A stretch of 64,000 nucleotides of DNA from Candidatus Pacebacteria bacterium GW2011_GWA1_46_10 (GTDB lineage Bacteria > Patescibacteriota > Microgenomatia > UBA1400 > PJMF01): assembly GCA_001002135.1 (NCBI GenBank), contig LCLP01000001.1, positions 230,274-294,273 on the forward strand, read 5' to 3'. Position numbers and translations under genes: made by a program. The notes beneath the pieces were generated by a model. It was not told the DNA's origin. It was given only the letters and a program-made list of their open reading frames with translations, and ran no database searches. This document shows, piece by piece, positions 8,729-25,467 of the stretch; the stretch's first letter is position 1, and each line of letters opens with the position of its first letter.

Positions 8729-8746
8729 TGATGGCAGAGAGAATTC

Positions 8747-9523
8747 GTGATCATTTCCTCACCCCAACAACTCCGGCAATACCAGGCGGTGGCCAAAGTC
8801 TCGACCGAGATCTTGTGGCAGCTGCACCAGAAAACCCGTGCTGGGATAACTCCACTGGAGATTGACCGATTGGCCGACAAACTCTGTCGGCAGCACCAAG
8901 TCAAACCAAACTTCAAAGGAGTTGGTTCGCCGGACAATCCGTACCAGCATGCCACCTGTATTTCGGTCAACGACGTGGTGGTGCATGGTATTCCACAAGA
9001 TGTACCACTCAAAGAGGGAGACTTGGTCAAGGTTGATTTTGGGATCGAGCAAGATGGTTGGCAGACAGATCATTGTTTTACGGTGGGCGTTGGCACATTA
9101 ACTGATGAAGAACGGACACTGTTAAGGGTTGGTCGAGCTGCGGTGCTCAAAGCTGCCCGTGGCGCCAAGGTTGGCAAGACAGTGGGTGATCTTGGACACC
9201 TGATGGAGTCAACCGCGGGGAAATATGATTTCTCGGTCACGGAGCAGTATGTCGGGCATGGGATTGGTCACTTGCTACACGAAGAGCCACAAATTCCCGC
9301 TTGGGGGGAACCGAAGACTGGGATGAAATTGACTGAGGGGATGGTGTTGTGTGTGGAGGCGCAAGTGATTGCTGGTAACAGTGATGTCTATACGGCTGCT
9401 GATGGTTGGTCAGTGAAGACCCGTGATGGGAGTAAGGCGGTGATGTTTGAATACATGGTGGTGGTGGGGAAAAAACAGCCGATTTTCTTGACGCCGACCA
9501 CTGCTTGGCCACTGACTGTCTAA
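8747..9523 (+). CDS. map: Methionine aminopeptidase type I
   Basis: Canonical MetAP-I blocks: VCISVNDVVVHGIP, DLVKVDFG, GWQTDHCFTVGVG, HGIGHLLHEEPQIP, GMVLCVE. Confidence 0.9.
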   Translation: MIISSPQQLRQYQAVAKVSTEILWQLHQKTRAGITPLEIDRLADKLCRQHQVKPNFKGVGSPDNPYQHATCISVNDVVVHGIPQDVPLKEGDLVKVDFGIEQDGWQTDHCFTVGVGTLTDEERTLLRVGRAAVLKAARGAKVGKTVGDLGHLMESTAGKYDFSVTEQYVGHGIGHLLHEEPQIPAWGEPKTGMKLTEGMVLCVEAQVIAGNSDVYTAADGWSVKTRDGSKAVMFEYMVVVGKKQPIFLTPTTAWPLTV

Positions 9524-9550: not shown

Positions 9551-10930
9551 GTGGTGTATAATTATACACCTCTCATGGTGAAGAAATCCCCACGTCAAAC
9601 TGCTTCCCGCAGGAGTGTAACCAGTAAAAAGCGACCGAAGAAATCGGTTCGTCAAACGTCATCTAAACGAAAAGCAGTCAAGAAAACTGTGAAAAAAGTT
9701 TCTCGGTCAACCAAGCAATCAGCCAAAAGACCAACTCAAAAAATGGTGAAAAAGACTGTCCGCAAACCTACCAAACCTACCAAACAAACCAAGCCAACCA
9801 AGGTTGAGCCGTTTATCATTCGTTCTCAGCAGGAGGAAAAACCCCTGCCAAAAATGACTGGCGAGCAGGTTGAGGCGCTTTTCAAAAAAGCCAAAAAGCA
9901 AGGCTTTGTGACTCAAGAGGAGATCTTGGATGTGTTTGTCGAGCCGGAGCTTTATTTGGAGCAGTTGGATGACTTTTATAGTCGAATTGTTGAGGCACAA
10001 ATTGACGTTTTTGAAGCTGTTTCAGAGGAGAAAGAAGAAGAGAGTGATGATGAGCTACAGCAGGAGTTAGATCTATTGGCCGGTCTGAAAAACACTGGTG
10101 TGGCTGACCCGGTCCGCATGTACCTCAAGGAGATTGGCCGGATTCCGCTTTTAACCCGTGAACAAGAAATTAGGTTGGCCCAAAGTGTGGAGGCCGGCGA
10201 CATGAAGGCGAAAAAGGGCTTGATCGATGCCAACCTCCGGTTGGTGGTGTCGATCGCCAAGAAATACATCGGTCGGGGTATGACCTTCCTGGATCTGATT
10301 CAAGAGGGCAACAAGGGTCTCATTCGCGCGGTCGAGAAATTCGACTGGACGAAGGGTTTTAAGTTCAGTACCTACGCCACTTGGTGGATCCGCCAAGCGA
10401 TTACCCGGAGTATTGCTGACCAAGCCCGCACCATTCGGATTCCGGTCCACATGGTCGAGACGATCAATAAACTAATGCGGACCAGCCGCCGGTTGATGCA
10501 AGACTTGGGTCGTGAGCCAACTCCTGAGGAAATTGGTAAACGGATGGAGAACATGGACCCGGATAAGGTTCGTGAAATTCTGAAAATTTCCCAAAATACC
10601 ACTTCACTGGAGACGCCGGTGGGCGATGGAGAAGATGACAGTATTCTCGGGGACTTTATTGCCGATGAAAAACAGGTTTCCCCGTATGAGGCTACCAGCA
10701 AACAGATGCTGCGGGAGAACATCGAAGAAGTCTTGGGTGCGCTTTCAGACCGTGAGGCCAGGGTACTGCGCATGCGGTTTGGGCTGCAGGGTAATAAAAC
10801 GATGACCTTGGAAGAGGTGGGTAAAAAATTCGGGGTCACCCGTGAGCGAATTCGTCAAATTGAGGCCAAGGCGCTGCGGAAGCTCAAACACCCTAGTCGA
10901 CGCAAAAAACTGCAGGATTTCCTCGAGTAA
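9551..10930 (+). CDS. rpoD: RNA polymerase primary sigma factor (sigma-70) with a Lys-rich N-terminal extension
   Basis: Regions 1.2, 2, 3 and 4 are recognisable: [87 protein letters not shown]. Start codon is ambiguous between GTG at 9551 and ATG at 9575. Confidence 0.9.
9553..9570. promoter_or_regulatory. Perfect 18-bp palindrome ggtgtataattatacacc overlapping a TATAAT hexamer at the rpoD 5' end
   Basis: The sequence equals its own reverse complement and contains tataat at 9558-9563. Confidence 0.45.
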
Positions 10931-10958
10931 TGGTCTGATAGTTCCCACCAAAATTTCA

Positions 10959-10990
10959 CTTGCCAATTTCATTTTCGGTTGTTACGCTTC
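10959..10990 (+). repeat. Conserved 5' leader element, copy 1 (cttgccaatttcattttcggttgttacg)
   Basis: About 30 bp nearly identical to 43748..43779. Looser similarity continues into the N-terminal coding region of the paralogous gene. Confidence 0.6.
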
Positions 10991-11019
10991 ATGTTAAGGC
11001 CGTCAGTGACACTATTAGT

Positions 11020-11421
11020 ATGATTACCAAACAAGATTCTCTCCAACTGCAAAAAGACTTTAAAAAAGTTTTTGTTACGAAAGCGGAAATGAATGCCCGA
11101 TTCGACAAGATGGACGTGCGATTTGACAAAATAGATACCCGTCTCGATAAGATGGACGCGCGGTTTGATAAAATTAACGCTCGGTTTGACAAGATGGATA
11201 AGGATAACGAGGAACAAACCCTGAGTTTAGCTCAGACGTTTAATCAAATAAATGACAGATTTATCGCCATTGAGAAGAGATTGGATATGATTGAAGAGAT
11301 TTTGCGAAGAATGGATGACCGGCAAAGCAAGATGGAGGAGTTTATGAAAGTCATGTCGCTTAAACTCCTCAATCATGATGGTCGGATTGTCACTCTGGAA
11401 TCAAAAATCCTCTTGAGTTAG
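11020..11421 (+). CDS. Small coiled-coil protein with five tandem heptad repeats (RFDKMDx); paralog of the 43809..44192 gene
   Basis: ATG at 11020 gives MITKQDSLQLQ, shared with the paralog. Repeat block RFDKMDVRFDKIDTRLDKMDARFDKINARFDKMDK. Confidence 0.55.
   Translation: MITKQDSLQLQKDFKKVFVTKAEMNARFDKMDVRFDKIDTRLDKMDARFDKINARFDKMDKDNEEQTLSLAQTFNQINDRFIAIEKRLDMIEEILRRMDDRQSKMEEFMKVMSLKLLNHDGRIVTLESKILLS
11098..11202 (+). repeat. Five tandem imperfect 21-bp repeats inside the coiled-coil gene
   Basis: The units read cgattcgacaagatggacgtg, cgatttgacaaaatagatacc, cgtctcgataagatggacgcg, cggtttgataaaattaacgct and cggtttgacaagatggataag. Confidence 0.8.
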
Positions 11422-11439: not shown

Positions 11440-11514
11440 TCCCCTGTAGCTCAATGGCAGAGCAGGTCGCTGTTAACGACAAGGTTGGCGGTTCGAGTCC
11501 ACCCGGGGGAGCCA
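11440..11514 (+). tRNA. tRNA-Asn (anticodon GTT), CCA encoded
   Basis: Cloverleaf is recoverable: acceptor tcccctg/cggggga, D arm gctc-aatggca-gagc, anticodon loop cTGTTaa, T loop ttcgagt. There is one mismatch each in the anticodon and T stems. Confidence 0.75.
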
Positions 11515-12972
11515 AAGTTGATTATCGGTATGATTTAAGATTGTGTCGAATGGTTTTATCGCTTCATATCGCACTGTTTTACCCTCTACCCTAAGGTTCG
11601 ATAGTACGAGCTTGATTAACTGTCGTTTTTCCTCAACTTCCGAACTCTTGAACAAATCATAAGCTCGGTTTACTAGCTCCAGTAGGTATTTGCTCGAGAT
11701 GTAATAGTTATCCTCGGCTTCTTGAAGCATACCGAGTTGAGAGTCTAGCCCAGCTATTTGTTCACGGAATGATTGATAGAACTTGTCATACTCATCGTCA
11801 GTAATACGCCCCTTCAGTTTATCAAGGTAAAGATTGTCCATCATTTTAGTAACGCTTTTGTGTTCTGCTGTTAATTTATCGTATTGTTTGTTTTGAAAGT
11901 CCATTTTGTCTTGATGAACATTGTTTAGATTTACCACTACCTGCTCTAAAACCCAGTCGGGGATTTGTAATCGCTTAAATATACTTCCTATTTGCTCGGT
12001 TATATTTTCTTCCCGTAACCATTCAGCCCCGTGTTTGCCGTTATACTGCGTACAGTGGTAATAAACGTGTCCTTTGTGCTTTTCTGGGGTTACAGCGAGC
12101 CCACAATGACCGCATCGTAGTAAGCCCCGATAAGGGTAAGGCTTTCCAGCATATCTAGTTTTTTTCTTATTAAAACCTGCCTTGATTTGCTGTACCTGGT
12201 CATATAAAGTTTTTGCAATAATCGCTGGATACTTATGTTTATATTGCTTATTTTTCCAGGTCATTATTCCGTAATAGAAAGCGTTTTTGAGAATTTTATC
12301 TATCCAACCGTGGGACCACTCAACTGAATATTCGTTTTTTATTTTTGTGCGTAATAAATCCATCGAGAAACTACCAGTCGCATACCACTCATAAGCTTTT
12401 TGAACTACCCGTGATGCAAATTCATCTATAACTATTTCTGTTTTGTCCTTGTTTATTGGTTCTCTTTTGTAACCATAAGGTGGTCGGGCTGGATATGTGC
12501 CCATTCTAAGCATTTGTTCTTGAGCTCGTTTTACGTTATCGCTGATTGCGTCTGAGTAGTACTTGGCTAACCCAAGGCTGATACTGAAATTAAACTTTTC
12601 GACTGCGGATAGCTGGCTATTGATGACTTGTCCATCAGATACAAAATGTATTTCAATTTCATCTCTGAGAGCTTTTTCATAAAGGATGGAAACTCTTTTA
12701 TCAAATATGTTACGAGATAGGCGATCAACCTTATCAAATCCAATGGCTATTTTTTCTTTCTGTGAGAGGATGAAATCAAGAATACCATCAAAGTCATCCC
12801 TCTTATTCTTGTATGCACTTTCATCAAAACTGAACTCCTTTATAATTGGGTACCCTTTATTTTGAAAATATTTTCTTAGTCGCGCAGTTTGGGCTGGTAG
12901 AGAGTTACCAGCATCTTTTTGTTCTTCTGTGCTAACTCGTGAAGTTATAATTGCTTTCATGATTTTTGCCAA
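11473..12972 (-). CDS. Large serine recombinase (integrase)
   Basis: N-terminal resolvase catalytic domain (AIITSRVSTEEQ, GFDKVDRLSRN), a central recombinase domain, and a Cys-rich zinc ribbon (CGHCG...HC). The C-terminal codons run antisense into the tRNA-Asn. Confidence 0.8.
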   Translation of the reverse strand: MAKIMKAIITSRVSTEEQKDAGNSLPAQTARLRKYFQNKGYPIIKEFSFDESAYKNKRDDFDGILDFILSQKEKIAIGFDKVDRLSRNIFDKRVSILYEKALRDEIEIHFVSDGQVINSQLSAVEKFNFSISLGLAKYYSDAISDNVKRAQEQMLRMGTYPARPPYGYKREPINKDKTEIVIDEFASRVVQKAYEWYATGSFSMDLLRTKIKNEYSVEWSHGWIDKILKNAFYYGIMTWKNKQYKHKYPAIIAKTLYDQVQQIKAGFNKKKTRYAGKPYPYRGLLRCGHCGLAVTPEKHKGHVYYHCTQYNGKHGAEWLREENITEQIGSIFKRLQIPDWVLEQVVVNLNNVHQDKMDFQNKQYDKLTAEHKSVTKMMDNLYLDKLKGRITDDEYDKFYQSFREQIAGLDSQLGMLQEAEDNYYISSKYLLELVNRAYDLFKSSEVEEKRQLIKLVLSNLRVEGKTVRYEAIKPFDTILNHTDNQLWLPRVDSNRQPCR

Positions 12973-15900
12973 TGACTTTCAATATAGGATTGTGCCTCGC
13001 TCATGCTTAAAGAGCTAGTGTTATTGCCAGTTCTCACATATAGCTCTTCACTGCCTTGCGATTTTACATAGACTGGATTATCGGATTTTAGAACAGTAAT
13101 AAGACAAACATCTTTCCCTTCGATCATTTCGAAAATCGTACTGAAGTAACGCACTCGATCGGCGCCCATAGTTTCCTTTACAAGCTGAACTAAATGATTT
13201 TCAAACTCATCTCTATTTCCGTTACTCAAAGTCATATAATCTTGTTCTAGTCCAAAGATGCTCCCACCGTCCTCAACACCAATAATGAGTTGTCCACCTT
13301 CAGCATTCATGTATCCAGCAATCGTTTTAAGAATTACCTTTTCCAAGTCTTTGTTTGTTTTTCCTTGTCTAACATCCCATCTTAAAGTTGATTTAAATTC
13401 AAGTTTTTGGCTTTCACCTTTCTTGATGAGCTTGCCAATATCTTCATTTTCCAACTTTCGATAGATACGAGGCATAAGATACTGTTCAAGTTTGTCTCGG
13501 AGTTTTGGATCATTTATGAATTTCATGACCAACTCTTCATTGCGATCCATTCTTTCAACTAGAATATTGATAAGTTCTTCATTGAGCGGATATTTGAATG
13601 CGTCTTTTGGATTGACTTTGGCTTGATTCATTAAAGCCTCGTTGTTGTAAATGTCTTGCTCTATTTGGTCGATAAAAAGCTTATCTGCTTCTGTAAACTC
13701 AGTACCGAGTTTGTCATTGAGTATTTTGATAATTTCAGAAAGAATGGATTTGTCTTCGGTCTCGTAATCTATCGTGCCTGCGTCTTGCAGGGTAGCGAGC
13801 TCAACGGTACCTAGTTTCTCTGGGGTAATACTTCCTTCCTGAATTTTTTGCAGTTTGTAATATTGCAGAGCAATCTCGTCATTAAGATCAAACCGTTCGA
13901 CCGGGTCCTTGGGGAGAGCATTTCTCAGTAAACGTCCAAATACATACAGTTTTTCAAGATCTGAGTCGCTAAAAGGCATTACTTGTGAAAGAAATACATA
14001 CGCTCTAATAAAAGCGGTGAGTTGCTTCTTGAAATCTTCCTGTTTATCCTTTTCTTGCGTTTTGTATCGATCAATAGCTGGGGTGATAATGACATATAGT
14101 TTTTGTTGATCTGCTTTTGTTTGGTATCCAGAGAAGAAAACTTTTGCAAATGACTCTACTTCAGAGAGCCAGAAAACCTTGGAGTCGATCAGACTATTTT
14201 TAAGGTCGTATAAATGATTTGGATCGGTTGACTCATCGATTGAAGTATTCTCATAGTAAGGCTGAAACGCTTCAAGAATTTCACTTGGTTCATTTACAAA
14301 ATCCAAGATAAACGTATCTTCTTTGCCAGGGTGAGTGCGATTGAGTCGTGAAAGGGTTTGGACTGCTTTTACTCCAGATAACTTTTTATCTACAAACATA
14401 GTGTGGAGCAATGGTTCATCGTAACCAGTTTGGTATTTATCAGCTACAAGTAAGATACGATACTCATCAGTAGCAAACTTTTTTGGTAATTCCTTTTCAC
14501 CGAAACCATTTAGCTGAGGTTCAGTGACTTTTTCATCAGTGTCTGGGTCTTTAAGCGCCCCAGAAAAGGCAACCAGCACTCGAATATCGGTGTAGGCTTT
14601 TTCTTTCAAGTAGCGGTTAAATTCCTGATAGTAACGATAGGCGTGTAGGCGAGAGCTGGTCACAACCATTGCTTTTGCTTTACCACCAATTTTCTTCATT
14701 GTTATGTTGCGAAAATGCTCAGCAATAACCTCTGTTTTTTGAGCAAGATTGTGAGGATGCAGAGACAAGAATCTAGCTATGGCTTGATTGGCTTTTTTCT
14801 TATCAAGTTCTGGGTCGTCTTCGATTTTTTTAGTAATTCTGAAGTATGTTTTGTAAGTGGCGTAGCCTTTGAGCACATCAAGAATAAATCCTTCTTCAAT
14901 TGCTTGTCGCATGGAATACAGATGAAAGGGTACAGGCTTACCTTCTACATTTGAAACACCAAAGACTTCGAGCGTTTTGGCTTTGGGTGTGGCTGTGAAA
15001 GCGTAGAAGCTCAGGTTGTCTTGCTTGCCTCGTGCCGTCATGGATTGTCGAATATTATCTTCAACCGTTTCATCATCAGTAGTGTCTTCATTTTCTGCTT
15101 CCTCGAGAGTGTTAGCAGTCAACACTTGTTTCATCTGTTTGGCAGTTTCACCACCTTGTGAGCTGTGTGCTTCGTCAATAATTACCGCATACTTACTGGC
15201 TTGAAACTCACCGATTTGATCAAGCACAAAGGGAAATTTTTGTACCGTAGTGATTATGATCTTAACGCCTGCTCTTAGTGCATCTGCAAGCTGGTTAGAA
15301 TCTTTATCAATTCTCTTAACGACACCTTGCTTGTGATCAAATTGGTAGATAGTATCTTGTAACTGTTTATCCAAGACAATCCTATCGGTGACTACTATGA
15401 CTGACTTGAAAACTGGTTCGTTTTGATCGTCATGCAAACTTGAAAGGCGATACGCCAACCATGCAATGGAATTACTCTTGCCACTTCCTGCGCTATGCTG
15501 AATTAGGTAGTTCTTACCAACACCCTTTGCTTTGGTATCATGAGTAAGCTTGCGGACTACATCGAGTTGATGATAACGAGGGAAGATGATTGTTTCTTTT
15601 GTTTTGATTTTTCCACTAACTCGAATTTCTTGTTGCTCAAAGTGAATGAATTTTTGCAAAATATCCATCCAACTATCTTTGCTCCAAACTTCCTTCCATA
15701 AATAATCAGTTTTGTAACCTTGCTCATTAGGTGGATTGCCTGCTCCGTTTTGGTAGCCCTTATTAAAGGGTAAAAAGGATGTGTCCTCACCTTTTAAGTG
15801 AGTAGTCATGGAAACCTCATTTGGATCAACGGCAAAGTGGACTAAAGCTCTCTTCTTAAATTGAAACAACATTTCGTTGGTATCTCGTGTGTAGATGAAT

Positions 15901-16409
15901 TGTCTTTCAGCATTACTTTTATCTTGTCCTGTAAAAGGATTTTTCAGCTCTACTGTAGCTACAGGAAGTCCATTCAGAAAGAGCACTAAGTCAACTGCTA
16001 AATCTGGATTCTTGACACTAAAATGAACTTGGCGAGTTACGCTCAGGATGTTTTTTTGGTACAACTCAAGTGTTTCAGGGTTGAGATACGACTCAGGCTT
16101 GAAGTAAGCAAGATCTAGGTGAATACCATGATCATCAATACCTTCACGAAGCACTTTGAGCATACCCTTTTTCTCTAGCTCACGCACTAATCTAGAAATG
16201 ATTTTGTCTTCAAGCTGATCCTGATGAATATCAGAGAGCATTTGCCATTTTTCTGGCTGGGTATCGCATAGGAATGAGAGTAGGGTGGTTGTATCAAGAG
16301 CAAGTTGTGGGTCGAAATTATTAGCATTGCCTTGAACATATTCAGATTGGTTGATTAAGCTATCGACGATATTTGATTCGAATGTTTCTTCGTTATAAAT
16401 GTTGCTCAT
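12957..16409 (-). CDS. hsdR: Type I restriction enzyme R subunit fused to a C-terminal AlbA_2/Schlafen-like domain
   Basis: Helicase motif I QHSAGSGKS and DEAH box IIDEAHSS. The C-terminal 200 aa have AlbA_2 hallmarks: LEFKSTL, AGYMNAEGGQLIIGVEDGG and PVYVKSQGSEELYVRTGNNTSSLS. Confidence 0.8.
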   Translation of the reverse strand: MSNIYNEETFESNIVDSLINQSEYVQGNANNFDPQLALDTTTLLSFLCDTQPEKWQMLSDIHQDQLEDKIISRLVRELEKKGMLKVLREGIDDHGIHLDLAYFKPESYLNPETLELYQKNILSVTRQVHFSVKNPDLAVDLVLFLNGLPVATVELKNPFTGQDKSNAERQFIYTRDTNEMLFQFKKRALVHFAVDPNEVSMTTHLKGEDTSFLPFNKGYQNGAGNPPNEQGYKTDYLWKEVWSKDSWMDILQKFIHFEQQEIRVSGKIKTKETIIFPRYHQLDVVRKLTHDTKAKGVGKNYLIQHSAGSGKSNSIAWLAYRLSSLHDDQNEPVFKSVIVVTDRIVLDKQLQDTIYQFDHKQGVVKRIDKDSNQLADALRAGVKIIITTVQKFPFVLDQIGEFQASKYAVIIDEAHSSQGGETAKQMKQVLTANTLEEAENEDTTDDETVEDNIRQSMTARGKQDNLSFYAFTATPKAKTLEVFGVSNVEGKPVPFHLYSMRQAIEEGFILDVLKGYATYKTYFRITKKIEDDPELDKKKANQAIARFLSLHPHNLAQKTEVIAEHFRNITMKKIGGKAKAMVVTSSRLHAYRYYQEFNRYLKEKAYTDIRVLVAFSGALKDPDTDEKVTEPQLNGFGEKELPKKFATDEYRILLVADKYQTGYDEPLLHTMFVDKKLSGVKAVQTLSRLNRTHPGKEDTFILDFVNEPSEILEAFQPYYENTSIDESTDPNHLYDLKNSLIDSKVFWLSEVESFAKVFFSGYQTKADQQKLYVIITPAIDRYKTQEKDKQEDFKKQLTAFIRAYVFLSQVMPFSDSDLEKLYVFGRLLRNALPKDPVERFDLNDEIALQYYKLQKIQEGSITPEKLGTVELATLQDAGTIDYETEDKSILSEIIKILNDKLGTEFTEADKLFIDQIEQDIYNNEALMNQAKVNPKDAFKYPLNEELINILVERMDRNEELVMKFINDPKLRDKLEQYLMPRIYRKLENEDIGKLIKKGESQKLEFKSTLRWDVRQGKTNKDLEKVILKTIAGYMNAEGGQLIIGVEDGGSIFGLEQDYMTLSNGNRDEFENHLVQLVKETMGADRVRYFSTIFEMIEGKDVCLITVLKSDNPVYVKSQGSEELYVRTGNNTSSLSMSEAQSYIESHWQKS

Positions 16410-17761
16410 AGTATTTGATCCTTAATAAATTCTTCTGGGATTGGTTCATCACGAACATCGATTTTTCCAGTAACAGCACTTGAGATGAGTGTTTGGCGGT
16501 ATTCTCGAAGCAGGAGGTTTTGGGATATTAATGTATTTTTCTTGTTTTCAATTTTTTCTACATATCCATCTAGATATTGAGCTATTTTTACTAGCTCTTC
16601 TTCTGAAGGACTTAACAATGGTAGCCATTTTAATTCAGAGAAATTCAAGGTTTGCCTTACACCATTTCCAAGTCCATAAAGCACTTTACCTATATCATAA
16701 GAATGAAGTAGATAGTAATAGTATTGGGAATTAGATAGCTGATTTTTTGGGACAAGCCCAATATATGCTGAGGTTATAATTCCATGTTCTTTTGAAAGTC
16801 CAACTCTCAAACTTTTTTTATCATTTTGAAGGTCAGTTAGTCTTAAAATAATGTATCCCGAAGCTACTACTTGATAGCCCTGAAATGAACTTGGCAGTAA
16901 TCCAAAGTTATTTTCAACATTTCTTTTAATAATTCTTCCATAACTTAATGACAATACATTCTTTTCATTTTGGTTAATATTTTTGGTTTTGTTGTTTGAA
17001 AAGATTGCAAAAAGTGGTTTTATTTCCCAATGCTCAGGAACTTTCCCAATCCACTCAATGCCACTGTCTTTCATTTTGACCGTAGGATCGAGACCTTTAG
17101 TGACTACCTGATTGATGGTGGCTTGTTTTTTTTCTTCAAGGAGCTGGATGAGTTGTTTGTTTTTAGAGATGAGGTTGTCTATGAGGAAGATCTTATAGTT
17201 TAGGTATGAAGCAATTTTCTTCTGCATACTTGTATCGACTGAAATTGGAATGTATAAATTAGAAATAGTGTCTGAATTTAAATTTGCCAGCCCTGTGGTC
17301 GTATTTGAGAATATTTGATACTGCACTCTTGATATTTGTGAATTTAAATACCAATAACCAAATTGGCTGTTCATTTTAGTGTTTGGTCTTATTCTTTGCA
17401 TAAAGTTTGAGTAGCACGTTATTTCAGAGGTAATTCTCTTATCAACTACAGCGGTTTTTCCAATATGTAATTCGCTTCCGCTTGATTTAGTAATAATTAA
17501 ATCACCTATTTCTACTTTACTTTTTCTTATTTCAGCATCTGAGAGATCACGATAAGCAGAATCCTTCAAATTATTCCATTTACCATCGACGGATATTTCT
17601 GTAGACCTTAGTACTCTAGTTCCATTTTCCATGGGATCATTTCCCCATACTCCACCATCATTAGAAGTAATGAGCCACTTGAGTTTGCTTAGATACCAAT
17701 CTTGAGGGATTTCTCCAATCCAAGTTATGCCAGTTTGTTTGTATTTTGAATATGGCTTCAT
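16406..17761 (-). CDS. hsdS: Type I restriction-modification specificity subunit
   Basis: Two-TRD architecture with a central conserved spacer. 4-nt overlaps with both hsdM and hsdR. Confidence 0.75.
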   Translation of the reverse strand: MKPYSKYKQTGITWIGEIPQDWYLSKLKWLITSNDGGVWGNDPMENGTRVLRSTEISVDGKWNNLKDSAYRDLSDAEIRKSKVEIGDLIITKSSGSELHIGKTAVVDKRITSEITCYSNFMQRIRPNTKMNSQFGYWYLNSQISRVQYQIFSNTTTGLANLNSDTISNLYIPISVDTSMQKKIASYLNYKIFLIDNLISKNKQLIQLLEEKKQATINQVVTKGLDPTVKMKDSGIEWIGKVPEHWEIKPLFAIFSNNKTKNINQNEKNVLSLSYGRIIKRNVENNFGLLPSSFQGYQVVASGYIILRLTDLQNDKKSLRVGLSKEHGIITSAYIGLVPKNQLSNSQYYYYLLHSYDIGKVLYGLGNGVRQTLNFSELKWLPLLSPSEEELVKIAQYLDGYVEKIENKKNTLISQNLLLREYRQTLISSAVTGKIDVRDEPIPEEFIKDQIL

Positions 17762-19479
17762 GAGAGTATTTCTTTTAATAACCCATCACTTTCTTTTTCA
17801 AGTTCAAGAATGTCTTTCGTTATTTCCTCGAGTGAACGGAGGGGCTTATATTCATAAAAGTGTTTGGTGAAGTTTATTTCATACCCAACTTTGGTTTGGC
17901 TCTCATCAATCCAGGCATCTGGAACGTGGGGTTTTACCTCACGTTCAAAATACTCATGAATATCCTCTTTGAGTGGCACATTTTCTCTATCTCTCAGGCT
18001 AGTATCAGGCTTGGGGTTACCGCCCTTATCAGTGATTATTTTTCCATTTTTATCTATTTGAGGTCTTTCGATAGCAATCTGATTGTATCCAAAATCTTCA
18101 TTATCAAAAATCTTTGAGAATTTTCCTGACTTGATCTCACCATGCATTTCAACAATCTTGGCTATGTCTTCATCGGCAATTTCATGACGTTTGTTTCCCA
18201 AGCTCTTGCTCATCTTTTTGTAGAAATTAACTGCGTTAATTAGTTGAATTTTGCCTTTTCTTTCATTTGATTTACGATTGGTTAAGATCCAAATGTAGGT
18301 AGAGATTCCAGTGTTGTAAAAAAGTTGATCGGGAAGAGCAATGATCGCTTCTAAAAGGTCGTTTTCAATGATCCATTTACGAATGTCAGATGGACCACTT
18401 CCAGCACTTCCAGTAAACAGAGGTGAGCCGTTGAAGACGATTGATAATCTGCTCCCGCCATTAGACGGCTTCATCTTCGCAAGCATGGTTTGAAGGAATA
18501 AAAGAGAGCCATCGCTGATGCTTGGTAAGCCTGCTCCAAAACGTCCGCCATAACCAAGATCTTCATGTTCGGAAACAACTTCTTTTTGAGCTTTATTCCA
18601 CTTCACTCCAAAGGGAGGGTTGGAGAGCATATAGTCGAACTGTACATTAGATAGTTTATCATCACGCAGGGTATCTCCAAAACGGATATGCTCTGCATTG
18701 TGACCAGTAACCATCATGTCTGATTTACAAATAGCATAAGACTCGGGATTAATTTCTTGCCCGAATAATTCAAGCCGTGCATCTGGGTTTAACTCTTGGA
18801 GGTAATCTTCTGCAACGGTTAACATACCACCAGTTCCACAAGCTGGGTCGTAGATTGTTTTGACAATACTTTTCTTAGATAGAATTTCATTATCGTTTGT
18901 GAAAAGTAGGTTAACCATTAAACGAATGACTTCTCTTGGGGTAAAGTGTTCTCCTGCCGTCTCATTTGAGGATTCGGCGAACTTCCGAATTAACTCTTCA
19001 AAGATGTATCCCATTTCCAAATTAGTAACTTTTTTTGGGTTAAGATCAATTTCTTGGAATTTTTTAACTACTTGATAGAGCAAATCTGCCTTATCGAGCT
19101 TGATAATTTGTTTATCAAACTCAAAGTTTTCTATGATATCTCTAGCATCCTTTGAAAAACCATTTAGATAGTTGCGAAGATTTGGGGCGATATTGCTTGG
19201 GTCAGCAATTAGTTTATTGAAATCAAATTGACTATGATTGTGAAACTTTCTGCCTGCAATCTTGTTCAATAGAATATCTGGATCATCAATCTGTTTGTCC
19301 TTGATAGACCCGTACTGTTTTAGAACTATTTCTTTTGTATCCTCCAAGTCACAGTCAAGTCTACGAAGCACAGTAAGTGGCAAAATAACTTTGCCATAAT
19401 CTGATTGCTTATAATCACCACGGAGCAGATCAGCCACGCTCCAGATAAAGTTTGCGTATTGTGAGATATTAAGTTTCAT
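17758..19479 (-). CDS. hsdM: Type I restriction-modification N6-adenine DNA methyltransferase subunit
   Basis: HsdM N-terminal domain (NFIWSVADLLRGDYKQSDYGKVILPLTVLRRL) and catalytic motif LSNPPFG. Confidence 0.85.
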   Translation of the reverse strand: MKLNISQYANFIWSVADLLRGDYKQSDYGKVILPLTVLRRLDCDLEDTKEIVLKQYGSIKDKQIDDPDILLNKIAGRKFHNHSQFDFNKLIADPSNIAPNLRNYLNGFSKDARDIIENFEFDKQIIKLDKADLLYQVVKKFQEIDLNPKKVTNLEMGYIFEELIRKFAESSNETAGEHFTPREVIRLMVNLLFTNDNEILSKKSIVKTIYDPACGTGGMLTVAEDYLQELNPDARLELFGQEINPESYAICKSDMMVTGHNAEHIRFGDTLRDDKLSNVQFDYMLSNPPFGVKWNKAQKEVVSEHEDLGYGGRFGAGLPSISDGSLLFLQTMLAKMKPSNGGSRLSIVFNGSPLFTGSAGSGPSDIRKWIIENDLLEAIIALPDQLFYNTGISTYIWILTNRKSNERKGKIQLINAVNFYKKMSKSLGNKRHEIADEDIAKIVEMHGEIKSGKFSKIFDNEDFGYNQIAIERPQIDKNGKIITDKGGNPKPDTSLRDRENVPLKEDIHEYFEREVKPHVPDAWIDESQTKVGYEINFTKHFYEYKPLRSLEEITKDILELEKESDGLLKEILS

Positions 19480-19670
19480 TAATTTTTCCTTTCAGATAGA
19501 AAAGACTCTAAGTCGTGCTTGGATATTCGATGTTGTTTACCCGCCTTAACAGCGTGTAATTTTTTTGCCTGCACCCATCTATAAACAGTTAGATAGGCTA
19601 CTTTTAGCATTTTGGAGATTTCTTTAATGGAGTAATATTGCTCTTCTATCATATTAGTTATATTTATCAT
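19479..19670 (-). CDS. Excisionase-family / MerR-like HTH DNA-binding protein
   Basis: 63 aa with HTH segment IKEISKMLKVAYLTVYRWVQAKKLHAVKAGKQHRISKHDLESFL. It overlaps the hsdM start. Confidence 0.6.
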   Translation of the reverse strand: MINITNMIEEQYYSIKEISKMLKVAYLTVYRWVQAKKLHAVKAGKQHRISKHDLESFLSERKN

Positions 19671-20817
19671 TATTTAACATTGTATCTTGAAAATCAACTA
19701 GTTTTAGTGGTTCAAAATTGGTCAAATGCTCACGAATTACTTCAAGTGGGCTTTTGGAAGGGGGCAATTTGACGGTTTTTGCCTCTGCAATGAGTCTATA
19801 CCAACTCCTTTGACTGTATCCACTAAACATAGTTCTAAGCTCACGAGGCGTTATATCGTTGAAAATTTGTTTTAGTCCATAGAGCTGTACGGTTTTTTTT
19901 AGTCCAAGGCGAGAATTATTAATAATAAGGTCTGCCAATAAGGATTTTGGACTTGTTGGTTTGTAATCAAATAGCGGTAGTCGTTTACTTTCAACTTCAT
20001 CGAGATAATGTAGTAAGACTTGTTGAGAAATGCTTGGGCTAAAAAGGTTCTTATAAGTAAGCTCTGATTGAATGCCAAGCGTGCGGAATAACTGCTTTAT
20101 TTTCTGCCGTTTATTGAGCCGTACTTCCATTCGTAAGACCTCTAGCTGTTTTCTTTTCTCAAATGTATCAAAAAGGCTAAGTTGTAAGGCATTATCTCTT
20201 TCTACCGCTCGTTTCTCACTTTTCTTTGCCATTTCGAGGTCTTTTATCTTATCGTAAAAAGCTACTTCATATGAGTTGGCATGCCATTTGTAGCTGTGTC
20301 CATCATTGCGGTAGTCTGTTTGGTTTATATCGAGTGAAAGTTTTATATTTGCTTCATTAATCTTGCTAATAAGGTAATGAGGTGTAGACCCATCTGTTAG
20401 AGGTATATTTTTAGAATAATGAATAGCTGACACTGGTGCATTAAGTAAAAATTTTTCCCAAACCATCACGCCCATATCTTTAAGACGGGATTTTAATAGT
20501 TTGGTAACAGGATCAAAGTCGTCAATCGACAACTCGTCAAAATTATTGCCAAAAAGCAGTTTAGGCAGAGATAATTCTATTTTAAGTGTTGCTTCGCGCC
20601 TGCCTGTGTGGTTAAAACGGTTCGTTAAGGTAAGTCGTGGCTTATAGATACCACTTTGTAATTCTCGCTTAGTGGGGTTTTGTTTTGCAGGAATATATCC
20701 ACGACTACCCATAGATGAGTTTTCATCAAGTATTAGCCTAGCAGATGGTTCAAACCTATCTGGTTCTTTAATGTAATACATACCTTTACTTAGTGTTAAA
20801 ACTACTGTGTCTAGCAT
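19654..20817 (-). CDS. Hypothetical island protein (possible replication or mobilisation function, unproven)
   Basis: 387-aa ORF overlapping its neighbours within the same operon. No clear motif. Confidence 0.35.
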   Translation of the reverse strand: MLDTVVLTLSKGMYYIKEPDRFEPSARLILDENSSMGSRGYIPAKQNPTKRELQSGIYKPRLTLTNRFNHTGRREATLKIELSLPKLLFGNNFDELSIDDFDPVTKLLKSRLKDMGVMVWEKFLLNAPVSAIHYSKNIPLTDGSTPHYLISKINEANIKLSLDINQTDYRNDGHSYKWHANSYEVAFYDKIKDLEMAKKSEKRAVERDNALQLSLFDTFEKRKQLEVLRMEVRLNKRQKIKQLFRTLGIQSELTYKNLFSPSISQQVLLHYLDEVESKRLPLFDYKPTSPKSLLADLIINNSRLGLKKTVQLYGLKQIFNDITPRELRTMFSGYSQRSWYRLIAEAKTVKLPPSKSPLEVIREHLTNFEPLKLVDFQDTMLNNDKYN

Positions 20818-21082
20818 ACATTTTGGTTACATTTTCAAACTTTGAAATGATTACTTTTTCTATTTTTTCCGCAATATTTCGGTTAATGGGATGAAAGATA
20901 TTAAAATTACCGCTCGGACCCTTGCGAGTGGGGTAGGTCAATCGATACCCACCTTGCGGTCTGGTATAGATACCAATGGACCCAAAATAAAAGCTGTCGT
21001 TATAAACGAAGCTCGCAAAACCCACCAAGCCATCTCTTGCTTTGATTGGTGTTATTTGAACTTCGCTTAATATGTCTTTCAT
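20786..21082 (-). CDS. SpoVG-like nucleic-acid-binding protein
   Basis: Resembles SpoVG: N-terminal VQITPIKARDGLVGFASFVYNDSFYF, YPTRKGPSGNF and the HPIN motif. Confidence 0.5.
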   Translation of the reverse strand: MKDILSEVQITPIKARDGLVGFASFVYNDSFYFGSIGIYTRPQGGYRLTYPTRKGPSGNFNIFHPINRNIAEKIEKVIISKFENVTKMYARHSSFNTK

Positions 21083-21417
21083 ATTTTCCCCTTAGGTTGG
21101 TTTTCAATAGATAATCCATCGATGCATCGTTCCAACTCTTTATCACTCCAATTTTCAAGTGATTCCCAACCCATCATCAATAAATCCTCTAAAACCTCTG
21201 TATTTTGAGCGTGACAAATATCACAGACCTTGTCATTAATGATGATTTGGTATGCTCTATCACGGCTTACTTGTTTACCAAATGCTTGGATTTTTACACC
21301 CATCTTTTCTTTACGTGCTCGAATGCCTTCTTTTACCCTCTTACTAAATAGTCTGTGATAATCAGTTGTCAACAAATCCAGAAGTTGAGTCTGAAAACTC
21401 TTGTTTATTTTTTTCAT
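21079..21417 (-). CDS. Hypothetical protein; first gene of the minus-strand island operon
   Basis: 112-aa ORF with a palindrome and a conserved 5' motif upstream. Confidence 0.4.
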   Translation of the reverse strand: MKKINKSFQTQLLDLLTTDYHRLFSKRVKEGIRARKEKMGVKIQAFGKQVSRDRAYQIIINDKVCDICHAQNTEVLEDLLMMGWESLENWSDKELERCIDGLSIENQPKGKI

Positions 21418-21429
21418 TTGTTACTTTCT

Positions 21430-21444
21430 TTGACCGTTGGTCAA
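21430..21444. promoter_or_regulatory. 15-bp palindrome ttgaccgttggtcaa in the 5' UTR of the 21417 gene
   Basis: Perfect inverted repeat about 14 nt upstream of the start codon (minus orientation). Confidence 0.4.
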
Positions 21445-21617
21445 TACTTATTAGAATTGAGAAAAAATCAGTCAACCTTGCCATATCATCAACATCAAAG
21501 CCTTCCGTACTCCTTTCAGGGCTTTGCAACTTTTTGAGCTGGGAATTGGTAAAGCTCGACCGCATTAAGTCGAGGATATAAAAAGGAAGGTTGTCCCAAG
21601 TGGGTCAACTAGTTGTC

Positions 21618-23192
21618 CTACTTTTTGTGGAACAAGAAATCGGAGTTTATATTAACCGTCATCATCGAGTAAATAAAGAAGTTTTGCTTGCCAGTCTTGC
21701 TAGCAATTACAGCATTGAGGTCCCTACAAAGATAGTAAATTTTCCGTTGAGCTTGTTTGGTATCATAATCGTTTGAACCACTGATTGCTTCATAAAGTTC
21801 GACTGATTGCCATTCTTGTTTTGCGATGTTTTTGTTTTTTGACAATATTTTGAGTAATTCTGTGCGATTTGTGTTACTTTTCAACTTAATAGTCTTGTTT
21901 GCCACTGTTAATGTGTTGGTTCTAGTATCGAAACTCCAAGTATCACTAGAAGACTCCACTACTGTTGGTTGTTTTATTGTCGACTCATCAGGAACTTGTT
22001 TTCGTTCGTGTTCATCAAATTTGAGTAATAATTCTTTGGCATATAAATGAACACGCTCCATGTAATTTTTGTAAGTTTCGACATGGAACTCACGAATGTA
22101 GTGATTTGGGTCATGTGGTTTAGTTAGTATTGTATTCAACTCATCAGATAGCATTCCTGCCGATAATGCAGTAAGTGGTTTGCCACTCTCCATGTACTGC
22201 TTGTAAACACTCTCATGATCTATGTAGAGCCTATGAAATGTAAATAGCTTGTCCCAGCTGAACCACGGTCTTGTTTCCCGCAGACGTTCTTGCTTTAGTT
22301 TTTCTTGTTTGTGCCCCTCATAACTTGGTGAAAAAATATACTTCCTCACAAAGCCGTCAGGAGTTAGTTCAGCGTACTGTTGGGCAATTTTTAGGTGTTC
22401 GGTATTTTTTGTTGCCACTAATCCTCGAATAATATCCTCAACTTCACCAATTCGACCAGACAGTGGTCCCTCAGTGCTTTCTATTGTTCCTTTTTCGTAA
22501 GAGTGGTAGTTCTTTATTGCCCCAGTAATAATTGCATTTTTTATGCCTGCTTTTGAACAATATACAGAGAGTTTCTGAAATGCCTTGTCTATTTCAGAAT
22601 AAGCCAGCTTTTCGAGTTGTTTTAATTTAGTTGTTTCGGTGTTACCTAAATCGTTAAGAGCACGAACGACGCCCCTAAGCAAGCCCTCTCTAAAATAGCC
22701 ATCAACATATTCGAACAGGTTGCTAAAAAAGAACTTCGGTTCAGCTGTTTCTTTTACTCTTTTGTAAATTGCGTCGATTTGTTCTACTAATAAGGAGACT
22801 TCTGAAACTGGGTTATCTAATTGAGAAAACTCTGGTGGATTCTCTTTGCCCTCGTATATGTTCCTTTGGTACTCATTTAGATATGTAGTGACGTCGCATA
22901 TCTTTTGATACTTAGTGTAAACGGTCTCAAACGTAGAAGGGTAGATGTCAAGGTAGAGCACGTCGTTAGTACTAACTGGTGGTTCAAACGGGCTTTCTCG
23001 CACTCGTAGAGCACCTAATTCCTGCAACTTGAAAATGATACCCTCACGTCTGTCCCTTGGAATAATGCCTGCACCAGCAACGTGTGGCATTTTGTATTTC
23101 ACTGGCTTATCATTTTGAGTTGCGAGTGTTTCCTCTTTGATGTCTTGGAGTATTTCCCAAACCTGCTGATTAAACTTTTCTTCTGGCGTCAT
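21618..23192 (-). CDS. Hypothetical 524-aa protein with no recognisable domain
   Basis: Long uninterrupted AT-rich ORF, divergent from the AlbA_2/HD gene pair. Confidence 0.5.
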   Translation of the reverse strand: MTPEEKFNQQVWEILQDIKEETLATQNDKPVKYKMPHVAGAGIIPRDRREGIIFKLQELGALRVRESPFEPPVSTNDVLYLDIYPSTFETVYTKYQKICDVTTYLNEYQRNIYEGKENPPEFSQLDNPVSEVSLLVEQIDAIYKRVKETAEPKFFFSNLFEYVDGYFREGLLRGVVRALNDLGNTETTKLKQLEKLAYSEIDKAFQKLSVYCSKAGIKNAIITGAIKNYHSYEKGTIESTEGPLSGRIGEVEDIIRGLVATKNTEHLKIAQQYAELTPDGFVRKYIFSPSYEGHKQEKLKQERLRETRPWFSWDKLFTFHRLYIDHESVYKQYMESGKPLTALSAGMLSDELNTILTKPHDPNHYIREFHVETYKNYMERVHLYAKELLLKFDEHERKQVPDESTIKQPTVVESSSDTWSFDTRTNTLTVANKTIKLKSNTNRTELLKILSKNKNIAKQEWQSVELYEAISGSNDYDTKQAQRKIYYLCRDLNAVIASKTGKQNFFIYSMMTVNINSDFLFHKK

Positions 23193-23260
23193 AGTTCGTT
23201 ACATTTTCAAAACTTATGTTTGTTTATCATATTTTATCAGTTTAACGATAGAATAGTGTT

Positions 23261-24712
23261 ATGGGAGACAAGGCAAAAAAAGCTATAGAAACTCGAAGTA
23301 TTTCACTCGATGAAGTGATTGCCATCCTTTCGTCTAACAAACCTGAAGAATTGATTGGAGTAGAAGAAACGGCATATTTTGAGTGTAGAGGGGTTTCCTA
23401 TTTAACTTCTTTTGGTGAACAATCAGACATAGAAAGACATAAGTTTAATTTGGTTAAAGACGTGGTTTCGATTGCCAATTCTGGTGGTGGGGTTATCTGC
23501 ATCGGTGTCAAAACTTTAGAAAAGTCGAATGAAAAAACAGAGTATATTACCGAGATTGCACCAGTTCCTAAAGACCATATTCAAATGAAGAGTTGGGAAG
23601 ACATACTTTTTGGTTATAGTATTCCGAAATTTAAGAGACAGTGGCTTAAATATGGATACAGTGGCACAGATAAAAAAGTCTTTTGGATAAAGATTGCGGA
23701 CATTCGGGAGACTGCGGAATACCCAGTATTGGTGAGTTTATCTAAGAAATATGAGGAGGGTGTATCAACCGTTAAAGAGAACTTTGGTTTGTACTTTAGA
23801 GACCGTTCAGTCAATGTTCCATATTCTCCTGAAAAACTGCACACATTTATTCAGGCAGGGTTTAGAGGGAATGACAATGGTCAAGCGAGATACCTTAAAT
23901 CTATGCTAGAAGCGATTGACACAAAAATAGACCTACTTTCAAAAAAAGTGAGTAAAGAAGACGCAAAACAAATAAAACTTGAATTAAGAGAGGAGATTGC
24001 CAATTACGTTATTCAAAAGCTCGATAGCTCAAAAGGTCTTTTCTACCTTTTTGCTTTTCCTGTCAAAGATGCAGTAATCAAAGAGTTCTGGGAGCAAGGC
24101 GATAAATCTGTTTATCACCTTATCAAGAACACGCCACATTTAAGAGAGACGGGTTGGGATTTACGTGTAGCTCAGTCTGAGTATCCATATCCCAATAAAA
24201 ATAAATGGGAAATTACAAATGGTAATCGTAAGCTCACGAGCTTTGATATTCGAGGTAGATTGTTTAGTGCTGGTTCAATAGACGGGTTCTTAAATTGGGG
24301 GGTTAGAGATTATAAAACAGACGAAAAACACAACATAGTAAATGCATTTGCTCTAACAGAATATATTGATAGTTTTTTCCAAACCTTGGAAGTATTCAAA
24401 ACGGTTTTTGATATAAAAAGTGATTATGAGGTTGAAGCTGGGTTTTTGGAGGCTGGAAGCAACACTAAACTCTTATTTCCTCCTCATATTATAAGTATTT
24501 TCCACGCTTTGACAGAAACCATCAAACAGGAAAAATGGGATGTAGACGTTAGGCTGGAAGACGATAAGCACCCCTCTTATTTTGCTGGACAATTAATACA
24601 AGAAATTTATGTAAGTGGATTTGGTTATGTGAGCCATCCAGATTATCCTTATCTTACTAAAGATGATAAAGGGTATAAGGTTAATGAGGCTTTGTATATC
24701 AGACAAAAATAG
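23261..24712 (+). CDS. Protein with an N-terminal AlbA_2/Schlafen-like domain and an unknown C-terminal domain
   Basis: VKDVVSIANSGGGVICIGVKTLEKSNEK matches the AlbA_2 G-G-x-I-x-I-G-V block. Upstream an E/EF-rich segment (VEETAYFECRGVSY) is present. Confidence 0.5.
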   Translation: MGDKAKKAIETRSISLDEVIAILSSNKPEELIGVEETAYFECRGVSYLTSFGEQSDIERHKFNLVKDVVSIANSGGGVICIGVKTLEKSNEKTEYITEIAPVPKDHIQMKSWEDILFGYSIPKFKRQWLKYGYSGTDKKVFWIKIADIRETAEYPVLVSLSKKYEEGVSTVKENFGLYFRDRSVNVPYSPEKLHTFIQAGFRGNDNGQARYLKSMLEAIDTKIDLLSKKVSKEDAKQIKLELREEIANYVIQKLDSSKGLFYLFAFPVKDAVIKEFWEQGDKSVYHLIKNTPHLRETGWDLRVAQSEYPYPNKNKWEITNGNRKLTSFDIRGRLFSAGSIDGFLNWGVRDYKTDEKHNIVNAFALTEYIDSFFQTLEVFKTVFDIKSDYEVEAGFLEAGSNTKLLFPPHIISIFHALTETIKQEKWDVDVRLEDDKHPSYFAGQLIQEIYVSGFGYVSHPDYPYLTKDDKGYKVNEALYIRQK

Positions 24713-24843
24713 CTTTAGGTAATCGCAAGATTAAAGGTGTCGAATACTGTTTGGATATTTTGTAAACTAAATCCAAACTCTATCTCTCGGTTCTTAAATG
24801 CGTCAACCAGGGGGAGCTTAATATATTTTGATATAATTGATAA

Positions 24844-25467
24844 ATGGCATTTGATGAGGTTCTTTCTCCTGTTCTTCAGACAGATTTGAGGTCTAAGTAT
24901 CACCCCGTTCTTGTCGCTTATCAAAATAATGAGTGGATAAGAGAGCAAATGGCATTGCTCGAAAGTCACGGCGATCTAGATCATGCGGTACGGGTTGCTT
25001 TTTTGGCAGCTGAGTTAGCAAAGCATGTGGAAATGAACGATGATGAGATATTGATTATTGCCAAAGCAGGGTTGTTGCACGATCTAGGAAAATTACAAAT
25101 ACCGCCTGAAATTTTTAAAAAAGTACAACTTACAGAAAAAGAGAGAGCTTTAGTTGATGAGCACGTTCGAGCTGGCTTTGAGTTGGTGAAGGAGCGTTTC
25201 CCGTTTGTAGCAAAAATAATGGTTGCTCATCACGAGTTTCAAGCTAGAAGGTACCCGAGAAAAAATGACCGAGATCCTGTTGGCACGAGACTGAGGGAAT
25301 TGCAGAGATTATTAGCAATCGCCGACCAGACAGACGCTCTGTTGAGTGCCAGGTCATACAAAAAAAGATGGCCAATCTATAAAGTGAGAGAATACCTTAA
25401 TGATTTATTTGATGATCACCACTTAATCGATTTTTCTATTGCTAAAAGAATCAGCATAGTAGATTAA
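24844..25467 (+). CDS. HD-domain metal-dependent phosphohydrolase
   Basis: H...HD...H...D pattern in HAVRVAFLAAELAKH, GLLHDLGK, AHHE and DQTDAL. Confidence 0.65.
   Translation: MAFDEVLSPVLQTDLRSKYHPVLVAYQNNEWIREQMALLESHGDLDHAVRVAFLAAELAKHVEMNDDEILIIAKAGLLHDLGKLQIPPEIFKKVQLTEKERALVDEHVRAGFELVKERFPFVAKIMVAHHEFQARRYPRKNDRDPVGTRLRELQRLLAIADQTDALLSARSYKKRWPIYKVREYLNDLFDDHHLIDFSIAKRISIVD

Follow-up and report, generated by a model that had tools for sequence, protein, structure and literature searches.

The locus at positions 21618-25467 of a 64,000-nt stretch of DNA from Candidatus Pacebacteria bacterium GW2011_GWA1_46_10 (the whole stretch is hereafter the window) carries three neighboring genes, encoding proteins of 524 aa (u524), 483 aa (the pSlfn gene) and 207 aa (HD207), which we judge, at a probability of roughly 0.7, to be three functionally separate things: a single-gene prokaryotic Schlafen (pSlfn) effector, a backbone gene of the surrounding island, and an unlinked HD-GYP-type phosphodiesterase. 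A preliminary description of the same DNA had proposed that the three form one defense module. What stands of that proposal is that the AlbA_2/Schlafen-like gene, situated in a restriction-modification (R-M) island, can credibly be regarded as an anti-phage gene; the module of three genes is refuted, because u524, pSlfn and HD207 do not co-occur in other genomes. Proteins of the pSlfn kind were already described in 2025-2026, and here one forms part of the cargo of a serine-recombinase island in a bacterium of the Candidate Phyla Radiation (CPR).

The three open reading frames (ORFs) lie exactly where the preliminary description placed them and have the lengths that it gave (Table 1), and the motifs that it quoted are found at residues 71-83 of the 483-aa protein (IANSGGGVICIGV) and at residues 76-83 of HD207 (GLLHDLGK). 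The AT-rich region from which u524 and the pSlfn gene diverge, also as described, is a 68-nt spacer with 76.5% A+T. Homologs are known for all three proteins, full-length at 31-89% identity for u524 and the 483-aa protein, so these are real genes rather than chance ORFs; no E. coli genome or plasmid matched the region in megablast. The low-GC island around the trio has 38.5% GC compared with 47-49% in the flanks, and its type I R-M genes lie 2 kb to the left of the trio and within 4 kb of the pSlfn gene.

The 483-aa protein is composed of an N-terminal Schlafen/AlbA_2 nuclease domain, a helical linker and a C-terminal domain. The arrangement, for which the preliminary description found no named system, is that of a stand-alone Schlafen nuclease with a variable C-terminal domain, which is the pSlfn class (PMC13056530, PMC13552941). 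pSlfns are single-polypeptide defense proteins that combine a nuclease with a sensor, and their defining motif is Ex4(E/D)xK (PMC13056530). The earlier AlbA_2/Schlafen call holds at the level of family and structure: PF04326 SLFN_AlbA_2 is matched by 49 of 51 sampled full-length family members (best 2.3e-12), the family profile finds CbCash (4.5e-6) and SLFN8/11/14/5 in the PDB, and the family's 'iEneflecK' aligns with the Schlafen catalytic 'SESASIEFK' of rat Slfn. The protein has the Schlafen nuclease fold, and the motif reads E36-TAYF-E41-C-R43, with E36 and E41 invariant in 14/14 close homologs. Across the 51 wider members, E36 is present in 51, position 41 is E or D in 51, position 43 is K or R in 51 (K in 47), and D67 is kept in 50. 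The close-family alignment is conserved over its full length and includes the invariant blocks EET..FE, SIANSGGG, GWDL and WE..NG.RK. An exhaustive profile search returned 1,437 clusters (50% identity) at E <= 1e-3, of which 665 reach E <= 1e-10; the top matches, mostly 450-490 aa long and aligned end to end, make this a widespread architecture, found mostly in metagenomes. Scans of PADLOC, NCBIfam and PHROGs gave nothing for the 483-aa protein. By every feature of pSlfn membership that can be tested computationally, the protein belongs to the class.

The comparison with a related element on another contig, L025, is decisive against a three-gene module. L025 has the same backbone as the window (recombinase 72%, u387 51%, SpoVG 80% and u112 57% identical) and its Schlafen gene, 89% identical at the aa level, occupies the corresponding slot, with both neighbors swapped: in place of u524 is a 237-aa ORF that has only the C-terminal ~100 residues of u524 in common (27% identity, E = 1e-5), and in the HD207 slot is Shedu (SduA_C 7e-20; PADLOC SduA), followed directly by housekeeping genes. 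In blastn, window positions 23187-24718 match L025 at 86.7% over 1,532 nt, compared with 68-70% for the backbone, and the DNA homology runs from the u524 start codon to 6 nt past the pSlfn stop codon. Since this block of homology takes in only the gene and its promoter region, the pSlfn gene behaves as a discrete single-gene cassette. A search for loci outside the source population in which any two of the three genes stand together found none among 26 loci (tblastn and HMM matrices), contrary to the co-occurrence that the module implied.

Eleven independent contexts of the pSlfn gene were examined, with homologs ranging from 89% down to ~20-30% identity, and no upstream or downstream gene recurs over them. 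Defense neighbors are clear in five: type I R-M in the window, R-M and Shedu in L025 (89% identity), AbiV-HEPN and a resolvase in L021 (66%), a type III-like R-M in L011/L012 (57%), and ResIII, RE_endonuc, GmrSD and transposases in L013 (33%). They are probable in two more, beside a helicase-PLD in L014/L015 (32%) and an HSDR_N_2 protein in L028 (31%). A search for related loci by tight alignment gave eight genome and five metagenome loci, several of them too short for neighbors, and none in viral contigs. Two cryptic candidates for HD proteins downstream of distant homologs (226 aa in L016, 170 aa in L013) were rejected, having no Pfam and no HD-HMM match. The 81% homolog (L022:7034-8476 and L023:3851-5293) is called as two genes of 56 and 395 aa; tblastn aligns residues 1-482 in one frame, which indicates an in-frame stop and hence a pseudogene or a reassigned stop codon.

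The C-terminal domain (~230 residues), presumed to be the sensor or regulatory module, is conserved along its full length in the top profile hits. No Pfam or PADLOC family covers the C-terminal half (51 family members, Pfam). The C-terminal half was also considered as a second Schlafen lobe and rejected, with no sequence relation and an hhalign probability <1%. R295, G298 and E367 are invariant in the C-terminal domain, which bears a weak AdoMetDC/TBP-like resemblance. By analogy with characterized pSlfns, this domain would hold the Schlafen/AlbA_2 nuclease inactive until an infection cue is detected; once freed, the nuclease would cleave tRNA (or another RNA), which would shut down translation and limit phage yield. 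Among the characterized proteins, pSlfns with a fused sensor confer defense on E. coli, and RorSlfn5 is a tRNase activated by phage (PMC13056530).

Several points weigh against the reading of this protein as a pSlfn effector. The nuclease activity, the RNA target (tRNA cleavage), the trigger and the phage protection are extrapolated from other pSlfns. The window protein alone falls below threshold against Pfam AlbA_2 (E 3.5e-4, 21.5 bits over 42 residues; gathering threshold (GA) 25.3). The third motif residue in the window protein and its subclade is R and not the canonical K, a conservative change. The neighborhood sample is small, with the downstream side missing for some contigs (L021, L032), and a recognizable defense gene is absent from four of the 11 neighborhoods: those of L022/L023 (81%) and L016/L017 (32%), which are housekeeping, and those of the distant family members L037, where no defense gene was seen, and L038. 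Mean pairwise identity for the C-terminal and nuclease domains is 45% versus 46% among close homologs and 26% versus 32% in the wider set, and this conservation of the C-terminal domain contrasts with the fast-evolving sensor reported for pSlfn5. Such near-equal conservation might point to an enzymatic or a ligand-binding function, and it is the chief source of doubt as to how the protein is activated.

An unlikely alternative to a defense role is that the 483-aa protein is a non-immune nucleic-acid-binding or regulatory protein of the AlbA family, serving housekeeping or element maintenance, for example as a regulator that binds DNA or as a toxin-like addiction module. The four neighborhoods without recognizable defense genes are consistent with such a role, as are the NCBI name of one family member ('AlbA family DNA-binding domain-containing protein'), the first solved structure of the SAMD9 AlbA_2 domain as a DNA-binding domain (7ksp), and a survey in which 69.6% of pSlfn genes lay near defense genes and 30.4% outside such neighborhoods (PMC13056530). 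However, strict conservation of the catalytic acidic/basic motif in 51 diverse members argues for enzymatic activity over mere binding, the gene moves between mobile islands as a discrete cassette, and R-M, Shedu, AbiV or GmrSD adjoins it in most sampled contexts. Scattered solo insertions like that of L038 are typical for mobile defense genes. The L038 copy (8001-9443), a distant family member, is a lone insertion that separates hemC from a hemD/cobA gene within a heme-biosynthesis cluster, with a Y1 transposase nearby, on a 107-kb non-CPR metagenome contig.

HD207 had been proposed as the HD hydrolase partner of the Schlafen-like protein; it is specifically of the HD_5/HD-GYP type and a homolog of cyclic-dinucleotide phosphodiesterases, not of nucleases. 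It scores 57.9 bits (1.4e-15; GA 27.2) for HD_5, 51.7 bits (1.3e-13; GA 22) for HD and 30.6 bits (GA 27.6) for HDIG, gives only weak Cas3-HD matches in PADLOC, and has PmGH 4mcw (2e-12), V-cGAP3 5z7c (5e-10) and PA4781 4r8z as its best PDB relatives. Aligned to PmGH, its metal ligands are H47, H79, D80, H107, H129, H130 and D161, with K83 and E131 also conserved; PmGH E185, one ligand of the trinuclear site, has no alignable equivalent, and R136-Y137-P138 (HHEFQARRYP) stands where PmGH and V-cGAP3 have the GYP signature. Family membership makes hydrolysis of a cyclic dinucleotide most likely. Beyond identical copies, no relative exceeded 39% identity over ~63% of the length among 5.8 billion clusters, and HD207 is, as far as such searches reach, lineage-restricted. 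An HMM built from HD207 and its relatives matched no HD-GYP ORF in the 26 related loci L011-L036 and recovered HD207 alone in the window; no HD family was found among the called genes of L037 and L038. HD207 is independently transcribed and has no conserved link to either neighbor. It is co-directional with the pSlfn gene, lies 131 nt from it and is preceded by an extended -10 element of its own, TGnTATAAT, at 24829-24837. This -10-like sequence (TGATATAAT) ends 6 nt before the HD207 ATG, just as a -10-like TAGAAT at 23249-23254 ends 6 nt before the pSlfn ATG, and no Shine-Dalgarno sequence lies between element and start codon in either case, which suggests leaderless transcripts for both genes. 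An 84-aa GTG ORF at 24715-24969(-), antisense over the pSlfn-HD207 spacer and the start of HD207, is probably spurious.

Comparative data alone leave some probability to a strain-specific functional link between these two genes. In the form that we considered, which is very unlikely, the pSlfn and HD207 make up a strain-specific pair, with the pSlfn gated by a nucleotide messenger at its C-terminal domain and HD207 degrading that messenger as an off-switch. Such a pair would be analogous to cA4-activated CRISPR-associated Schlafen (Cash) with ring nucleases, Cash showing that Schlafen nucleases can be activated by cyclic oligonucleotides (PMC13462974), and it would suit the closest solved relatives of HD207, which hydrolyze c-di-GMP or 3'3'-cGAMP. 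The unusual conservation of the C-terminal domain and its invariant charged or polar residues R295 and E367 would fit a small-molecule site, and the two genes are close and co-directional. On the other side, the island genes that were scanned include no cyclase or CD-NTase, no HD-GYP gene occurs in the 10 other family neighborhoods, CbCash is matched in the Schlafen domain only, and HD207 differs from the pSlfn gene in having its own promoter element and a higher GC (0.405 versus 0.366) and in lying beyond the end of the L025 homology. It would be a long shot to take the C-terminal domain not for a sensor of phage proteins but for a module, with a fold of a new class, that binds small molecules or nucleotides or acts as an enzyme, with HD207 tuning the signal in this strain; if true, this would be a second-messenger-gated Schlafen nuclease outside CRISPR, in a CPR bacterium.

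We regard as highly improbable the proposal that HD207 is itself anti-defense or signaling cargo, degrading for instance CBASS-type cyclic dinucleotides, or a native enzyme of c-di-GMP turnover just outside the island. Its family and its seven conserved metal ligands are compatible with either role, and the 3'3'-cGAMP-specific V-cGAP3 is its second-best solved relative. Its neighbors u118, cupin and u145 are at near-background GC, so that HD207, of intermediate GC, may be placed at the edge of the island or outside it. However, HD207 has no sensor or receiver domain, carries RYP for GYP and leaves the E185 position unaligned; no orthologs were found for comparison, and no literature was found tying HD-GYP proteins to phage defense or counter-defense.

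The remaining gene, u524, was described as lacking a recognizable domain, and indeed it has no match in Pfam, NCBIfam, PADLOC or PHROGs; its predicted model is largely made up of helices, and its resemblances are confined to wHTH and helical bundles. Homologs at 55-58% identity occur in L018, L019 and L020, and each heads one co-directional block in the order u524, small ORF (u112), SpoVG, ~390-aa u387, ~58-aa HTH_17, R-M and ~484-aa large serine recombinase; the L018 contig stops inside hsdR, with the recombinase end outside the contig. The order of u112, SpoVG, u387 and HTH_17 is kept in L018, L019, L020 and L025 at 50-80% identity (tblastn), and the recombinase, u387, SpoVG, u112 and u524 co-travel at 50-66% identity in the tblastn matrix. 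The window recombinase is 50-72% identical to those that end the L019, L020 and L025 elements. The R-M type varies among the elements (type I, or N6_N4 methylase with or without ResIII), and the gene divergent from u524 is DUF5655 in L018 and L020, proteasome-like in L019 and the 483-aa gene in the window; no Schlafen or HD gene stands beside the u524 homolog in L018, L019 or L020. Because the backbone keeps its head and order while the divergent gene varies, u524 is a gene of the backbone and not a partner of pSlfn or HD207. It is probably a DNA-binding protein of element maintenance or regulation and could regulate whichever cargo fills the divergent slot, which would be a property of the element and not of a Schlafen system. 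The N-terminal ~95 residues of u524 form a head domain that also occurs in proteins of other architectures. It is the only part shared by several unrelated proteins (P0023-P0031), which indicates a mobile module, and the 655-aa homolog of L020 (P0022; 8001-9968) has an N-terminal extension of ~125 residues before the conserved MTPEE head domain. For u387, neither Pfam nor the PDB gave a match.

Compared in gene order and identity, window positions 11440-23192 and L018, L019, L020 and L025 constitute a CPR family of mobile islands with a fixed backbone and swappable cargo. The integration target is probably tRNA-Asn(GTT), which overlaps the 3' end of the recombinase gene in the window and in L019, with rpoD nearby in both. 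The right boundary is not fixed, with the firm part of the low-GC block running out near pSlfn or HD207; the housekeeping flank of L025, looked for in the window as a guide to this boundary, showed no synteny. The least tenable reading, a three-gene defense system of AlbA_2 sensor, HD effector and u524 accessory under a shared divergent promoter, has in its favor the adjacency of the trio around the AT-rich spacer, its place in a low-GC island beside R-M and an arrangement stable over metagenome contigs of the same organism, but it is barely credible, since the ten contigs with the trio carry identical proteins throughout, which makes them one population and uninformative on conservation, u524 homologs adjoin DUF5655 or a proteasome-like gene, pSlfn homologs at 31-89% identity are never beside a full u524 homolog or an HD gene, L025 keeps the pSlfn with both neighbors exchanged, and no PADLOC system model matches any of the trio beyond weak Cas3-HD.

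Table 1. Position of the three genes, their parts and the other genes of the island in the window.
Feature	Position	Strand	Remarks
u524 (524 aa)	21618..23192	-	heads the conserved backbone block of the island
pSlfn gene (483 aa)	23261..24712	+	candidate single-gene prokaryotic Schlafen defense protein
HD207 (207 aa)	24844..25467	+	stand-alone HD-GYP-type phosphodiesterase homolog; adjoins the pSlfn unit, outside it
pSlfn cassette (gene + 68-nt upstream region)	23187..24718	+	unit common to window and L025
Schlafen/AlbA_2 nuclease domain (~aa 10-195)	23288..23845	+	
Catalytic motif, Ex4Ex(K/R)	23366..23389	+	E36-TAYF-E41-C-R43
Helical linker	aa 196-254		joins nuclease and C-terminal domains
Conserved C-terminal domain (~aa 255-483)	24023..24709	+	presumed sensor/regulatory module
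u112	21079-21417	-	backbone, co-conserved with u524
SpoVG	20786-21082	-	backbone; Pfam SpoVG
u387 (387 aa)	19654-20817	-	backbone, co-conserved with u524
HTH_17 ORF	19479-19670	-	backbone, co-conserved with u524
Type I R-M cargo (hsdM, hsdS, hsdR)	12957..19479	-	Pfam; PADLOC REase_I; hsdR 12957-16409, hsdM up to 19479
Large serine recombinase	11473..12972	-	island's left end; Pfam Resolvase + Recombinase + Zn_ribbon_recom
tRNA-Asn(GTT)	11440..11514	+	ARAGORN; overlaps recombinase 3' end

The cargo that is swapped across these islands includes R-M of type I, II or III, pSlfn, Shedu, DUF5655, SocA/Panacea and HepT/MNT. In the window, the HsdR protein has a C-terminal Schlafen/AlbA_2 domain of its own (12957-13499(-), residues ~999-1133, Pfam 1.9e-15), with a perfect Ex4ExK motif in GESQKLEFK (ESQKLEFK), so that together with the pSlfn the island has two Schlafen-type nuclease domains. 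In L018, an additional HsdS-like protein of 552 aa (9699-11357), with AlbA_2 at its C-terminus, is encoded between hsdM and hsdS. A second low-GC stretch of the window (39-42% GC), at 44675-49161(+), carries a type III R-M made up of a 586-aa N6_N4 methylase and a 909-aa ResIII helicase-nuclease, and an NYN-domain RNase-like protein is encoded upstream of it at 41824-42432(-).

The apparent three-gene system is narrowed by this analysis to one testable 1.5-kb cassette, 23187-24718. The value of the finding lies in the extension to CPR, in a large family with an uncharacterized C-terminal domain and in the modular island. The Schlafen branch of bacterial immunity is extended to CPR/Patescibacteria, whose defense repertoire is poorly known. 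The full-length family (hundreds of clusters; ~1,400 at 50% identity), with its conserved unannotated C-terminal domain, is a reasonable target for a new activation mechanism. Serine-recombinase islands tied to tRNA-Asn are also documented here, with a fixed backbone and swappable defense cargo that includes toxin-antitoxin genes.

The closest known relatives in kind are the pSlfns RorSlfn5 and EcoSlfn7 (Perez Taboada et al., Nat Microbiol 2026, PMC13056530), with which the 483-aa protein shares an AlbA_2 nuclease with an Ex4(E/D)xK-type motif, fusion to an accessory domain, and occurrence as a single-gene system in defense islands and on mobile elements. Its accessory domain is not Ig-like, DUF262, HisKinase or HTH and belongs to no Pfam family; 17% of surveyed pSlfns are fused to unannotated domains (PMC13056530). 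The 483-aa protein also differs in its N-terminal nuclease, in the R at the third motif residue of its subclade, in its CPR host, which lies outside the RefSeq complete genomes surveyed in that study, and in that its activity is predicted. The Schlafen protein of Enterococcus lactis, found via a serine recombinase, has a C-terminus without known domain and as a single gene confers broad abortive-infection defense (PMC13552941). The 483-aa protein is like it in the combination of a Schlafen domain with a C-terminus that matches no known domain, the two C-terminal halves being likened by description, and in the association with a serine recombinase; there a small recombinase is adjacent, whereas here a large one lies at the far end of a ~13-18 kb island.

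Mammalian SLFN11/13/14, with which the tRNase domain of SAMD9 may be grouped, differ in that mammalian SLFNs have a two-lobed N-domain and a helicase, whereas the 483-aa protein has one Schlafen lobe. Cash, a Schlafen nuclease activated by cyclic oligonucleotides such as cA4 (PMC13462974), provides in CbCash (9ylu) the best PDB sequence-profile match to the Schlafen domain. Unlike Cash, the 483-aa protein has no detected Csx15/CARF-like sensor, no cas genes were seen in the island, and the CbCash match is limited to Schlafen-domain positions 44-181, with the C-terminal half unmatched. HD207 resembles the HD-GYP proteins PmGH, V-cGAP3 and PA4781 in its HD_5 domain, its His/Asp metal ligands and its HHE motif, and differs from them as a bare 207-aa catalytic domain that lacks REC or sensor and has RYP for GYP. 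Shedu (SduA) is homologous to neither HD207 nor the pSlfn and is absent from the window, yet it is like the pSlfn a single-gene, modular defense protein that combines a nuclease with a sensor, and in L025 it fills the slot beside the pSlfn gene.

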